The notes under the pieces are model-generated. The model saw nothing but the letters and a program-made list of their open reading frames with translations. It had not been told where the DNA came from and made no database searches. Source: Thermoplasmatota archaeon (GTDB lineage: Archaea; Thermoplasmatota; E2; JACPAO01; JAHFTW01). From it: 64,000 bases of DNA. The translations under genes were made by a program, and so were the position numbers. Shown in pieces: positions 21,056 through 62,740 of the stretch (position 1 is its first letter; each line of letters starts with the position of its first letter). Location: NCBI GenBank assembly GCA_041601615.1, contig JBFIHX010000002.1, positions 46,026 through 110,025 on the forward strand. The letters run 5' to 3'.

Positions 21056-21685
21056 TCAAGCGAGTCGAGCTGTGCAGCCATCGGGCCCCCAGCTTGCTTC
21101 GTAGTTTGCATGAGACATCGTCAAAGTCGGGGGCACCTGGAGGGCAGTTGTGGCAGCAAGGGCGCCACTGAGCGGCAACCCTAGGCCTTCTGAGATTGCC
21201 CAGAGTGTGCCCTCTGCATCGACGCCAACGGGTCCAGAAATGGTTCGTTGGGCATCGAAGGGAGTGGCGAGGCACCCAACAGCAGCGGAATCAAGGTCAA
21301 TCGGAGGAAGATCGACCAAGTCGTAGGGGTCGAATTCGCATGCAGCGGCCACCGAGCCGAGCCGGTTGATTGCCTTCGCCGCAGCCCAGGTGGCCTGGAC
21401 GTACAAGCCCCGGTAATGGGCCACTTCGTGCCGTTGGGTAATCAAGATTGAGAAATCCTGATGGGTTGTGGATCCTCCGAACCCCTGCCCGTCCGCATCG
21501 ACGGCTACGTAAGGGATGTAAATGACTGGGAAAACGAAGACGGCGTTTGCTCTTGCCTCGGCCGTAGATTCGGTTGCGCCACAGATCACCTCAGCGGAGG
21601 TTCCAACGCCTTGGGATGCTTGGGCCGTGGGCATTACCAGGGGAAGCATGAGCAGTACTATTATTAGTGAAGTGAGGGGTTTCAT
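21056..21685 (-). CDS. Secreted hypothetical protein with Cys residues
   Basis: Signal peptide MKPLTSLIIVLLMLPLVMPTAQA from ATG 21685; strong upstream promoter. Confidence 0.65.
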   Translation of the reverse strand: MKPLTSLIIVLLMLPLVMPTAQASQGVGTSAEVICGATESTAEARANAVFVFPVIYIPYVAVDADGQGFGGSTTHQDFSILITQRHEVAHYRGLYVQATWAAAKAINRLGSVAAACEFDPYDLVDLPPIDLDSAAVGCLATPFDAQRTISGPVGVDAEGTLWAISEGLGLPLSGALAATTALQVPPTLTMSHANYEASWGPDGCTARLA

Positions 21686-21783
21686 ATTCTTATCCTGGCT
21701 CGATGAGCCATGCAAGCCATGTAATTGAGCTTCTATTACCGTATGCGTTGCTATGTTCCCCGACATAAAGCATCTAATTATTG

Positions 21784-21803
21784 ATATAAATTATTCCTTT
21801 TTT
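21784..21803 (-). promoter_or_regulatory. Archaeal BRE + TATA box for 21056..21685
   Basis: Minus strand reads AAAAAAGGAATAA-TTTATAT: purine-rich BRE followed by TTTATA. Confidence 0.6.
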
Positions 21804-21994
21804 GGTTCAGGTGCTGGGGCGCATCACGCAGTACGCCGCCAAGATTGCGCAAGAACTCCTAGAGCTTGGGCCCAACCGAAGAGCCGTGGGCATGCGGGAG
21901 AATTCCAAGGAGTGTGCACGCCAGCCCAAGCTGCATTTCTCAGCCGGCCTCAAGTCCAACCGATGAAATCGAGAATGGTCCACCATCGCATGGA

Positions 21995-22507
21995 TTACAA
22001 CGGCCCCAACCGCGTCAATCGCAGCCCCGCCACGACAAGCCAGGGCCCCGCGAGGCCCACGGTGGCCGCCACTGCAAACAAGGGAATGAACAGAACTCCA
22101 TCGAAACCCTGCACGGCCGACCACGCAGCCACCGGAAGGCCTGCAATGCCAAGCGGGAACAAAATCAGGCCTAGGGCCTTGGCGGGTTGACGCACCCAGG
22201 CTTCTCCCATCAGGAGTGCACGATACAGCCGAGCCGGGACCCACGCCAGCGCCAAAAACAACGCGCCGGCCACGATGGCGCCCAGGATTGCAAACCAAAT
22301 TGCTTCCAGAATATCGTTGGAGCTTCCCCATGCAGTGAGGAGGATGATGATCCCGGCGCACCAAATTCCAAGCAAAACTGCCAGGACAGACGCCAAGACC
22401 CACGCGATGCTGCGCATGGATCGAGCCGCCGGCCGCCACTCCAGAGGCGCAATTTCTGGAGGAAGGCGTAATCGGCGCAAAGGCCCCCAAACCCAGCGCA
22501 CGCTCAT
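21995..22507 (-). CDS. Four-TM membrane protein
   Basis: Four hydrophobic segments; fills the gap between secreted-protein genes. Confidence 0.65.
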   Translation of the reverse strand: MSVRWVWGPLRRLRLPPEIAPLEWRPAARSMRSIAWVLASVLAVLLGIWCAGIIILLTAWGSSNDILEAIWFAILGAIVAGALFLALAWVPARLYRALLMGEAWVRQPAKALGLILFPLGIAGLPVAAWSAVQGFDGVLFIPLFAVAATVGLAGPWLVVAGLRLTRLGPL

Positions 22508-22638
22508 GACCTACAAGCCCCCATCCAGTTCAAGAAACATAGGGTTGGTTTGATGCAACGTTCATTGCCTGGAACCATGCCTCAAATTGGCAAGTGAAAA
22601 AGAGGGGAGAAGGCTAGTTCGCTGCAAAGTTGGAGGGC

Positions 22639-23322
22639 TCAGACCTCAATTTGGATGTCGCAGACGCCCGGTGCAAAGTTGGCTTCCACCTGGACGTTGC
22701 TTACTTCGAACTCGCTCAAGTTGGCGACCGTCTTCAGAACGGCCGTGCCGTAATCGATGCTCGTGGGAAGGACAACGTCCTGGCCGTCGCGCTGGCCTAT
22801 GAGGACCGTGTTGCCGAGTTTGTCGGTGGCAATGGCGCCCTTGAAGTTGCTGATGCCGGAATCGTTCTTGGCTTCACAGACGACGCCAACGCCGTCGACC
22901 GGGAACACAATGCCGCCGCCGTGGGTGTGGGAGCCAGGGTAGGTGCAGTTGGCCCAGTAGAACGAGGAACCCGATTGGGCGCTGGCGCTTGCCTGCTTGG
23001 GGCCTTCGCCGTCGTAGGAGCTCGACGCGGTGACGGTGTGCTGGCCCTTGTGGTAGTAGTTGTTCTGTCCGGCGCCCATTTGGCCGTAGGTGTAAGCACT
23101 GGCAGAGTATCCGGCAGGGTGGTCGGCGGCGTACCCGGCAGAGCGGGCCCCAAATTCGCCGCATGCAGTGAATGCAGAGACGAGGATTTCCAAGTGGTCG
23201 TCGTCAGGGTACACCACAACGGATCCACCTACGCCCCAGTGCAAAGCAGAGACGGCAGGCACAAGGAGCAGGAACGCTGCAAACATCGTGATGGAGATTT
23301 TTCCAGGAGTCTTGTTGGTCAT
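22639..23322 (-). CDS. Secreted hypothetical protein (beta-rich, 4 Cys)
   Basis: Signal peptide MTNKTPGKISITMFAAFLLLVPAVSA from ATG 23322. Confidence 0.7.
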   Translation of the reverse strand: MTNKTPGKISITMFAAFLLLVPAVSALHWGVGGSVVVYPDDDHLEILVSAFTACGEFGARSAGYAADHPAGYSASAYTYGQMGAGQNNYYHKGQHTVTASSSYDGEGPKQASASAQSGSSFYWANCTYPGSHTHGGGIVFPVDGVGVVCEAKNDSGISNFKGAIATDKLGNTVLIGQRDGQDVVLPTSIDYGTAVLKTVANLSEFEVSNVQVEANFAPGVCDIQIEV

Positions 23323-61417: not shown

Positions 61418-61541
61418 CGATACCAAAGCGGCGTTCTTGCCTACTTAAGCAGTATAGTTCCATCAAACGAATCAACTAGACTTTGGGGCGCGCCGCGCCC
61501 GCTCCGAAACCTCCAACGCCCCGAGTCGCTGACCCGCTCTT

Positions 61542-61952
61542 GTGGCTCCCGACGAACGCCCCGCCAAGCTCCTGGCTCGCACTCCCGTGGAGGAGGCGCA
61601 CCTCCAGCGGCTTCAGGAACTCTCATCCCACGCGCAAGCGGCTGCCGAGGCTGCAAACGTAGACCTGCAATACGAGTTTGGACCCGTTGTTGCATATATT
61701 GCCGGGTGCCAGCAGTTCTTGCGTCTGCACCGAGGCGGCGAAGCACCCGGGGCCGTCGAATTGATGCTACCGCCGGACGCGAAGGCCGCCCTCGAAGCGG
61801 CGGGATATGAGGCGCTTGAGCCCTTTGGCGCAGTGTTCAAAATGTTCGGATGGACCCGCGTGGAGCCGATGGCGGGCACCGCCGAAGCGCTGGATGCGGC
61901 CGTGGAGGCCGCCTTGGAGCATGCGCGCAGCAAGGGAAAGCCCAAGCTCTAA
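61542..61952 (+). CDS. Hypothetical protein, possibly YjbR/luciferase-like fold
   Basis: 136 aa; FLRLH...ELML...MFGW pattern loosely resembles YjbR/TfoX-type folds. Confidence 0.55.
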   Translation: MAPDERPAKLLARTPVEEAHLQRLQELSSHAQAAAEAANVDLQYEFGPVVAYIAGCQQFLRLHRGGEAPGAVELMLPPDAKAALEAAGYEALEPFGAVFKMFGWTRVEPMAGTAEALDAAVEAALEHARSKGKPKL

Positions 61953-62089
61953 GCGGCAATGGCGAAGGGTCCAATGCGGTCCGAATTGGACACAATAGCT
62001 AACGTGGAACCGTGGCGGCGCCGTCTTGAGGGGACCGCGTCGATGCGCACGCTGTGTGGGGGTTTGCACCCACGCAAGGAAAGAAATCC

Positions 62090-62326
62090 ATGAACAAGAC
62101 CATCCTCATCAGCGCAATGCTCCTTCTGGCCGCAGTGGCCGTCGCCCCGACCGCCTCCGCCGTTGACCCCTGCAAGGCTTACGGTGCTTGTGTGGACGTT
62201 TCGGAAAGCGGCGTCACCGTGGGCGACTGCCAAACCATCGGTTGCGTTGGTGTATACTGGAGCAGCGGGCAAATCTGCTACGGCGTCAGCTACCAAGTGC
62301 CGCAGTGCACGCCGCCCATCTCGTAA
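62090..62326 (+). CDS. Small secreted 6-Cys peptide, paralog 1 (78 aa)
   Basis: Signal MNKTILISAMLLLAAVAVAPTASA; mature VDPCKAYGAC...; clear homology to 62504..62740. Confidence 0.85.
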   Translation: MNKTILISAMLLLAAVAVAPTASAVDPCKAYGACVDVSESGVTVGDCQTIGCVGVYWSSGQICYGVSYQVPQCTPPIS

Positions 62327-62503
62327 ACGCAGAAGTGCGTATTCTTTTCCACTCTTCCCTATCCGCCTCGCTTGAATTTCAAATGTCAACTCTGATGATT
62401 TTGATAGTGCGCCTTGGGTGCCTATGAAAATGTCCAAGTGCAGGGAGTCCAGTTGCATCATGGTGCGCCCCATCCGGGGCAGCGCAAACTCTCTGGTGAA
62501 ACT

Positions 62504-62740
62504 ATGAACAAGACAACGATCCTCCTATCCGCCGGCCTCTTGCTGGCAGCAAGCCTCGCCATGGTCCCGGCCGCCAGCGCGGTTGATCCCTGCGATGCCT
62601 ACGGTGCATGTGTCACCGTCACCGACAGCGGCGTCTTTGTCGGCGACTGCGACAAACTCGTCTGTGCGGGCGTATGGAACTACGGCGGCGGCGGTTACTA
62701 CTGCGTCGGCATCAGCTACCAAGCGCCCATGTGCACCTAA
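62504..62740 (+). CDS. Small secreted 6-Cys peptide, paralog 2 (78 aa)
   Basis: Signal MNKTTILLSAGLLLAASLAMVPAASA; mature VDPCDAYGAC...; all six Cys align with paralog 1. Confidence 0.85.
   Translation: MNKTTILLSAGLLLAASLAMVPAASAVDPCDAYGACVTVTDSGVFVGDCDKLVCAGVWNYGGGGYYCVGISYQAPMCT

Follow-up and report, generated by a model that had tools for sequence, protein, structure and literature searches.

Eight cysteine-rich secreted proteins of a marine Thermoplasmatota archaeon and a lineage-expanded repertoire to which they probably belong

The stretch of 64,000 nucleotides analyzed here (C2:46026-110025, called the window below) comes from a Thermoplasmatota archaeon and carries eight genes for signal-peptide proteins with paired cysteines. 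We name these genes by their first positions in the window as 21056, 22639, 27915, 28606, 37019, 53369, 62090 and 62504; positions on other contigs carry the contig number. The genome comprises 2.79 Mb in 30 contigs, is 93% complete and has about 62% GC, and matching contigs in four marine metagenomes of one study have the identical sequence. The best explanation of the eight genes, which we consider probable, is that their products are members of a repertoire of about 90 small extracellular proteins that has expanded in this lineage. The exported, disulfide-stapled and lineage-specific status of these proteins is well supported. An earlier note on the window had suggested that the lineage may devote substantial coding space to a diversified secretome of disulfide peptides, and the genome-wide census described below agrees with that suggestion.

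Census of small exported cysteine-rich proteins

Genes were called with a home-made codon-usage log-odds caller trained on long open reading frames (ORFs). A Sec signal was assigned where a charged n-region and an uncharged hydrophobic core of 10 or more residues were followed by a small-x-small cleavage site. Among the 2596 called genes, 359 encode signal-peptide proteins without a further transmembrane (TM) segment. Of these proteins, 103 are not longer than 150 residues, and 75 of the 103 have at least four cysteines in the mature part. A scan of ORFs that does not depend on the caller (coding score > 8) gave 104 such ORFs, whereas the reversed genome gave 6. Some 12 of these 104 ORFs resemble shadow frames of other genes, and the curated set contains 90 members, which account for 3.5% of the genes and 1.0% of the bases. 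The window itself is not a hot spot, since its 64 kb contain 4 such genes of up to 150 residues where the average of the genome would predict 2.1 (P = 0.16).

The cysteine numbers of the curated set are almost always even. Four cysteines are found in 47 members, six in 33, eight in 6 and ten in 2, and the remaining two have five, so that 88 of 90 are even. Exported proteins of up to 100 residues show 57 even versus 2 odd counts (p = 6e-15) and those of 100-150 residues show 28 versus 5, whereas cytoplasmic proteins of the same sizes have no even bias (50 even vs. 71 odd, and 88 vs. 122). The bias was not seen in secreted proteins longer than 250 residues. A preference of exported proteins for even cysteine numbers is an accepted bioinformatic sign that disulfides are formed (PMC2823432), and the excess found here, in exported but not in cytoplasmic proteins, is the pattern described by Dutton and Daniels with that method. 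The median length of the mature parts is 69 residues, and they contain about 6.6% cysteine, and 4.9% tyrosine versus 2.8%.

High-GC genomes yield many long spurious ORFs, and the shadow frames of the raw census would fit the idea that the ORFs are artefacts, namely chance open frames in GC-rich DNA with hydrophobic starts. However, chance frames are unable to give a parity bias, the reversed genome gave few such frames, and the orthologues described below are under purifying selection with invariant cysteines and share an upstream motif that is conserved across genomes. For the eight genes of the window and most of the set the artefact explanation is refuted, and it is barely credible for the repertoire as a whole.

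The cysteines might also bind metals or form redox centers (metallothionein-like, copper- or iron-binding) instead of forming structural disulfides. Their high content suits this idea, and one of the 90 members is a true cupredoxin. However, CxxC spacing was found in only 11/97 and adjacent CC in 3/97, histidine is not enriched, and the proteins are exported via Sec and not Tat. The rarity of CxxC argues against metal-binding sites, and metal binding leaves the strict even parity unexplained. We consider this reading highly improbable. The same CxxC count, together with a signal peptide on every member, also sets the proteins apart from cytoplasmic zinc-finger micro-proteins.

Clustering by BLAST divided the repertoire into about 78 groups of at most six members, and 16 tandem runs of two to four genes were seen. 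Signal peptides are better conserved than mature parts, for example in the four-gene array at C2:34415-35673. In scans with Pfam and NCBIfam, 89 of the 90 members had no match, the cupredoxin being the sole exception. The leaders are Sec-type with AxA sites, unlike the double-glycine leaders of bacteriocins. By inspection, the members do not resemble type IV pilins with class III signals, because the hydrophobic stretch precedes the A-x-A site and is cut off. No membrane anchor or sorting tail was seen in the small repertoire proteins. A larger secreted protein of 262 residues (C3:261706-262494, minus strand) consists of four tandem modules of about 55 residues with four cysteines each (SSCIGWGGSNGVCWGVYTPDSGESICVGIHSSSGHCTG), which suggests that such a mini-domain is also used in repeats.

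The eight window genes

All eight candidates were listed as ORFs and were recovered as non-overlapping genes by the codon-usage caller, with GC contents at third codon positions (GC3) of 0.59-0.77. Their starts are the ATG codons of the signal peptides, and several of the listed ORFs are thereby shortened. The cysteine counts of the mature parts are 4, 4, 6, 4, 6, 6, 6 and 6, and scans of the eight proteins with Pfam and NCBIfam gave no match above threshold. Thus the eight signal-peptide proteins with paired cysteines reported in the earlier note are all genuine, and four of them are indeed shorter than 90 residues (87, 80, 78 and 78). The eight had also been called unrelated, which is wrong for 62090 and 62504, tandem paralogues with 63% identity; 37019 has a paralogue as well (C3:176113-176346). 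The expectation that standard annotation would mostly miss such genes did not hold for the three that were checked (62090, 27915 and 53369), whose exact proteins are already public and merely lack functional annotation.

For the orthologue search, the eight mature sequences were concatenated and run against the family's 32 genomes. Seven of the eight genes have orthologues at syntenic positions in the same-genus genomes G001 or G002, the exception being 37019. Codon alignments of the orthologues gave 37-81% identity, synonymous divergence (dS) > 1 and ratios of nonsynonymous to synonymous divergence (dN/dS) of 0.11-0.50. All cysteines in the shared mature regions are kept, in gene order 4/4, 4/4, 2/2, 4/4, 6/6 (three comparisons), 6/6, 6/6 and 6/6. 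Synteny, the low dN/dS values and the kept cysteines together indicate genuine genes under constraint. The flanking housekeeping genes at the same loci are mostly 83-97% identical, so the secreted proteins diverge about 2-5 times faster than their neighbors while their cysteines stay invariant. These comparisons point to constrained, vertically inherited proteins that evolve several-fold faster than the genes around them.

The gene 21056 (21056-21685, minus strand) encodes a secreted protein of 209 residues with the signal peptide MKPLTSLIIVLLMLPLVMPTAQA and four mature-part cysteines. Its orthologue in G001 has 43% identity, 4/4 cysteines and a dN/dS of 0.21, compared to 71-88% identity for the flanking housekeeping genes of that locus. 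The secreted protein of 22639 (22639-23322, minus strand) has 227 residues and four mature-part cysteines; the orthologue in G002 shares 60% identity and 4/4 cysteines, with a dN/dS of 0.26.

The 184-residue protein of 27915 (27915-28469, minus strand) has six cysteines in two parts, a beta-sandwich domain of about 100 residues with one conserved cysteine pair and a C-terminal four-cysteine module of about 45 residues. The tail is absent from all homologues, which cover the N-terminal domain alone. These homologues are few and confined to metagenome-assembled genomes of Thermoplasmatota, with one in genus g6 besides the same-genus orthologue. In the AlphaFold model, the confidence score (pLDDT) is about 90 in the core and below 50 in the tail. 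A Foldseek search with the core matched the beta-jelly-roll domain of Tk-SP (3AFG), collagenase PPC/collagen-binding domains, CBM36 and GOLD with E values of 1.6e-4 to 5e-3. The mini-protein of 28606 (28606-28869, plus strand; 87 residues, four mature-part cysteines) is divergent from 27915. Its syntenic orthologue in G002 is 39% identical with 4/4 mature-part cysteines and a dN/dS of 0.38.

The secreted mini-protein of 37019 (37019-37261, plus strand) has 80 residues and six mature-part cysteines. Homologues in three genomes of genus g11 (G012, G017 and G020) share 37-41% identity and 6/6 cysteines with dN/dS values of 0.38-0.50. The secreted protein of 53369 (53369-53935, minus strand) has 188 residues and six cysteines. 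A single database homologue was found for it, at 63% identity, and the syntenic orthologue in G002 keeps 6/6 cysteines with a dN/dS of 0.31. A frame of 373 codons that starts at GTG was rejected as the 53369 gene, since the signal-peptide ATG gives the 188-residue protein. The 494 nucleotides upstream (53936-54429) have a GC content of 0.63-0.68 near the gene, and the Arg/Pro-rich 373-residue GTG frame that runs through them is probably non-coding.

The tandem pair consists of 62090 (62090-62326) and 62504 (62504-62740), both on the plus strand and each encoding a 78-residue mini-protein with six cysteines. Their orthologues in G002 are 65% (50/77; tblastn 66%) and 81% (63/78; tblastn 82%) identical, with 6/6 cysteines in both cases and dN/dS values of 0.22 and 0.11, respectively. 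The AlphaFold model of 62504 is all-beta with a mean pLDDT of only 69, and a fold search with this low-confidence model gave no PDB neighbor at E < 3. It is the sole model of a small member available for comparison with knottin- or defensin-type folds (cystine knot or CS-alpha-beta). A word-index search of a public protein collection with 62090 gave no match beyond itself. With a HMMER profile search, one close homologue was obtained, together with three remotely related repeat proteins in which the C-terminal CxGxSYQxPxC loop is also present. The remote proteins (P0017-P0019) are bacterial-looking and secreted and contain two to four repeats, each ending in a two-cysteine loop CVGFSYQxPxC; this repeat module appears to be uncatalogued.

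Other signal-peptide proteins of the window (24371-25411, 32709-33221, 50667-52082 and 60755-61417) mostly have no Pfam match either. Poor annotation extends to the whole secretome of the lineage, beyond its cysteine-rich part.

Distribution among relatives

We compared the density of such ORFs with at least four cysteines in this genome and in seven others, of which 244-400 kb each were analyzed with the identical pipeline retrained per genome. The density was 37.7 per Mb in our genome, 32.5 per Mb in G007 (genus g6) and 30.1 per Mb in G012 (genus g11). In G007 ten of the 13 hits have four cysteines and three have six; in G012 ten of the 12 have four and two have six. None is odd in either genome, and both have tandem arrays. 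Lower values were obtained for G014 of genus g4 (12.5 per Mb, mostly false hits, with about two plausible), G003 of genus g2 (10 per Mb, about one plausible), G006 of genus g5 (5 per Mb, none plausible), G026 of another family (4 per Mb, none plausible) and G039, a class-level relative with 31% GC (0 per Mb). The nominal 0-12.5 per Mb of these five relatives comes to about 0-5 after inspection, compared to 30-38 in the three rich genera. A density above that of other archaea had been proposed, and in comparison with these five relatives this is what we found for the organism and two sister genera. The repertoire is a trait of some genera and not of the phylum.

The sequences turn over almost wholly between genera. 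In G007 a tandem array of six small four-cysteine secreted genes from two families lies within 3 kb (G007:C6:1-40000, at about 14.7-17.7 kb), which suggests that array formation is a general habit of the cysteine-rich lineages.

Oxidative-folding machinery

A single DsbA-like protein is encoded in the genome (C1:209780-210661, minus strand). It matches Thioredoxin_4 with 68.9 bits (cut-off 23.2) and DSBA with 26.0 bits (cut-off 25.6). One TM segment is followed by an external domain with a CSSC motif, as in an extracytoplasmic thioredoxin-fold oxidase of the DsbA type. The cytoplasmic N-terminal segment contains a weakly matched C2H2-like zinc-finger pattern (CKRCDATFTNPAKLHKHLEREH), which is unusual for a disulfide oxidase. 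Judged from N-terminal sequences, the neighboring genes are apparently those of purine synthesis and of GrpE/DnaK-like chaperones. The genome also encodes subunit I of a haem-copper oxidase (COX1, E 3e-160), which indicates that the organism is an aerobe.

Homologues of the DsbA-like protein were found in 15 of 41 relatives, including the same genus and genera g4, g6, g7, g9, g10 and g11. The gene is missing in every class-level relative and in each of the seven genomes sampled from genus g5. The three rich genomes (G000, our own, with G007 and G012) all have the gene, and the three genomes without it (G003, G006 and G039) have no repertoire.

Two small multi-pass membrane proteins are encoded in the window. 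The one at 5781-6164 (minus strand) has a match to DoxX_2 and weak ones to DoxX and MauE; the one at 30487-30978 (plus strand) is similar to it by eye and has no Pfam match. Either product could be a redox partner of the DsbA-like protein, though nothing links them to it. Elsewhere in the genome, an exported, C-terminally anchored protein of 321 residues (C4:49915-50880, minus strand) has a thioredoxin-type WCEPC motif and no Pfam match. We did not count it as folding machinery, because it has no Pfam match and adjoins, directly downstream, the gene for an 856-residue membrane protein presumed by eye alone to be CcmF-like.

A shared upstream motif

The DNA upstream of the repertoire genes has a GC content of 0.53 as compared to 0.59 for other genes (p = 2e-6), and the median intergenic length is 118 versus 86 nucleotides (p = 0.04). 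In the 100 nucleotides upstream of the window genes, GC is at most 0.50 in five of the eight and 0.56-0.63 in the other three. The earlier note's description of AT-rich upstream DNA is thus right to a modest degree, but its description of this DNA as unusually long is not.

A search for a shared upstream motif, as the earlier note had proposed, was successful for about one third of the repertoire genes. Enumeration of k-mers gave CATCCC, which extends to tTTTcCAwTCrTCCCsAAtc and is often followed by AACcTCAAg. The full motif is about 22 nucleotides long, lies on the sense strand and has the form TTTTCCATTCATCCCGAATC. The exact 7-mer TC[AG]TCCC occurs within 120 nucleotides upstream in the sense direction in 17 of 90 repertoire genes, 11 of 281 other secreted genes and 54 of 2215 remaining genes (17/90 vs. 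65/2496 others, p = 9e-10). With a position weight matrix (PWM) at 13 bits or more, the corresponding counts are 29/90, 4/281 and 7/2213, with 1, 3 and 5 antisense hits, respectively. Since the refinement of the PWM had used these very genes, the matrix was validated by a split according to contig parity, in which the test sets gave 12/52 versus 7/1217 and 9/38 versus 1/996 (23-24% vs. 0.1-0.6%).

The motif mostly ends 32 nucleotides before the ATG, with its core TCATCCC at -44; in a second group the core lies farther upstream, at -65 to -73. Of 72 sites genome-wide with at least 13 bits, 45 precede a signal-peptide ORF within 140 nucleotides. Most of these 45 ORFs are cysteine-rich, including larger secreted proteins with 10-48 cysteines. 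A degenerate 18-nucleotide pattern with up to two mismatches was found 22 times in our genome (control 4), 30 times in G002 (control 5) and 10 times in G001 (control 0), and the motif is conserved within the genus. Outside the genus, counts were at control level in G007, G012, G017, G006, G014 and G005 and slightly above it in G008 and G010. In the loci fetched from G001 and G002, all four motif copies lie 37-39 nucleotides before signal-peptide ORFs with 4, 6 or 12 cysteines.

The only good copy in the window was found by the genome-wide PWM scan at 62343-62364 on the plus strand (TCTTTTCCACTCTTCCCTATCC, 14.7 bits). It lies between the two paralogues, 140 nucleotides before the ATG of 62504 and so farther away than the usual 32. 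A degenerate copy is present at -73 of 28606 (5.8 bits), and the G002 orthologue of this gene has a good copy (G002:C42:2740-2757).

An RNA element of the anti-Shine-Dalgarno kind was considered and rejected, since the duplex energy of the motif with the leader was no better than with shuffled leaders (p = 0.25) or with the reversed motif (p = 0.07). Because there is no excess of RNA pairing, we interpret the motif as an element of the DNA, namely a promoter or a site for a regulator. It is a candidate for a regulon or a promoter class.

Possible role of the repertoire

We propose that the proteins would cross the membrane unfolded via Sec and would then be cleaved by signal peptidase I. Outside the membrane they would fold into disulfide-stapled mini-domains, perhaps with the assistance of the single membrane-anchored DsbA-like oxidoreductase. 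The latter would probably be re-oxidized by a partner or directly in oxic seawater, a proposal made because a haem-copper oxidase serves the organism for respiration. The motif would act as a promoter or a transcription-factor site, and part of the repertoire would then form a regulon.

The role we favor, tentatively and at somewhat less than an even chance, is suggested by the sequences: the proteins may be extracellular interaction molecules under diversifying pressure. Such molecules could be factors of antagonism or defense, or binding or blocking modules directed against competitors, viruses or grazers. High diversity, fast evolution around invariant cysteines, tandem arrays, conserved signals with divergent mature parts and partial co-regulation are the points for a role in conflict. 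A bolder version holds that the approximately 45 motif-driven genes in the repertoire of about 90 form a co-regulated "arsenal" of hypervariable disulfide mini-proteins against competitors, viruses or grazers, and this we regard as unlikely.

Several observations weigh against this picture. As far as an antimicrobial role is concerned, the mature proteins, in common with the remaining secretome, are acidic (median pI 4.17, 3% net positive) and lack the net positive charge of cationic antimicrobial peptides. Their neighbors are not enriched in small TM proteins that could confer immunity (0.8% vs. 2.6%), and no dedicated transporters adjoin the repertoire genes, which thus do not resemble bacteriocin toxin/immunity loci. 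The proteins are not classical cationic membrane-active peptides; their acidity and the lack of immunity-like neighbors argue against both such peptides and bacteriocin-plus-immunity loci. None of the eight window genes has the motif at its canonical position. The disulfide-forming machinery that the earlier note asked for is there in part: the DsbA-like protein and the haem-copper oxidase are present, but DsbB (PF02600), VKOR (PF07884) and DsbD_TM were not found in this 93%-complete genome with searches that give hits in control genomes. Moreover, the DsbA-positive G014 and G026 have few or no such genes. In this co-occurrence comparison of eight genomes, with the relatives sampled in part, the pattern fits a DsbA-like gene that is necessary but not sufficient for the repertoire. 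Signal peptides and genes were called with our own heuristic and caller rather than with SignalP or Prodigal, and the repertoire is known here from the genome sequence and predicted models.

The same charge data bear on another explanation, in which the proteins are not antagonistic but are components of the envelope or matrix, that is, disulfide-stabilized modules for binding glycans, the S-layer or substrates on the surface of a heterotroph that degrades proteins and polymers. They match the other secreted proteins of the genome in composition and charge, are enriched in tyrosine, and have no immunity-like neighbors. Similar cysteine modules occur within larger secreted proteins, such as the four-repeat protein of contig C3 and the tail of 27915, and the 27915 core resembles the PPC, collagen-binding and CBM36 binding domains. 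On the other hand, small proteins with neither membrane anchor nor sorting tail are hard to reconcile with this function, and about 78 unrelated clusters with fast turnover between genera would be unusual for structural components. We consider envelope modules possible but rather doubtful.

A further candidate role is that of secreted protease inhibitors, by which the cell would shield itself or regulate the extracellular peptidases that it makes. Size, disulfide density and rapid evolution would be typical of the Kazal, Kunitz and knottin families by analogy, and acidic, unanchored proteins would suit this function. However, no member matches an inhibitor family in Pfam or NCBIfam, and the neighboring genes, whose domains were not examined in detail, showed no link to peptidases. 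Inhibitors are therefore very unlikely in our view. Interaction or antagonism thus ranks first among the roles and surface or binding modules second, with protease inhibitors and metal binding well behind.

Little is known of the substances that archaea secrete and of their interactions with neighbors. About 3.5% of the genes of an archaeon of an abundant marine type form a clearly delimited class, marked by signal peptide, even cysteine number and small size, with a shared cis-element in one third. The members of the repertoire are well-defined candidates for expression, for the mapping of disulfides and for activity screening, and the motif offers a handle for finding a regulator. The proteins could also serve as stable mini-protein scaffolds. 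If the arsenal reading were true, the repertoire would be the first in archaea to correspond to those of the venom, defensin or effector type, and it would imply a route to extracellular disulfides that is independent of DsbB and VKOR.

Comparison with known systems

Among archaea, halocin C8 (TIGR04449 / PF22862) is an exported disulfide-rich antimicrobial peptide of haloarchaea with about 76 residues. The peptide is released by cleavage of a precursor that is exported via Tat and also includes the immunity protein, and haloarchaea carry one or few halocin genes. The repertoire described here is likewise archaeal, exported and cysteine-rich, but it has Sec signals, no immunity partner and about 90 genes. 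The halocin models (TIGR04449 and the Hac8-like Pfam family) gave no match among the eight window proteins or the 90 members. Sec-dependent class II bacteriocins are small ribosomal products with ordinary signal peptides and disulfides, which are typically cationic and have an adjacent immunity gene. Our proteins are also small and have Sec signals; unlike these bacteriocins, they are acidic, have no immunity-gene neighbor and show no homology to them.

The proposed folding pathway is similar to the DsbA/MdbA systems of aerobic bacteria (Actinobacteria with VKOR) in its membrane-anchored external DsbA-like protein and in the even cysteine numbers of exported proteins. It differs from them in that DsbB, VKOR and DsbD_TM were not found and in the weakly matched C2H2-like segment at the N-terminus. 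For 27915, the likeness to PPC and beta-jelly-roll domains (Tk-SP, 3AFG; collagenase collagen-binding domain, 3JQW) covers the core of about 100 residues, with the Foldseek E values given above and TM-scores (TMt) of 0.5-0.6 on stand-alone domains. Unlike PPC domains, it has no sequence-family match, stands alone instead of being appended to a protease, and bears an extra four-cysteine tail.

To our knowledge from a search of the literature, cysteine-rich peptide repertoires have been described for eukaryotes, besides a few bacteriocins and halocins, and not as a genome-scale feature of archaea. The eukaryotic repertoires (defensins, plant cysteine-rich peptides (CRP) including nodule-specific ones (NCR), small cysteine-rich effectors secreted by fungi, and cone-snail toxins) have no sequence or detectable fold relationship with the proteins studied here. 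The latter are made by an archaeal host, are acidic and not cationic, and would undergo oxidative folding outside the cell membrane and not in the endoplasmic reticulum. The relation is thus one of analogy and not of membership. It consists in dozens of proteins per genome, each with a signal peptide and 4-10 invariant cysteines, and in tandem arrays of paralogues whose signal peptides are more conserved than their fast-diverging mature parts.

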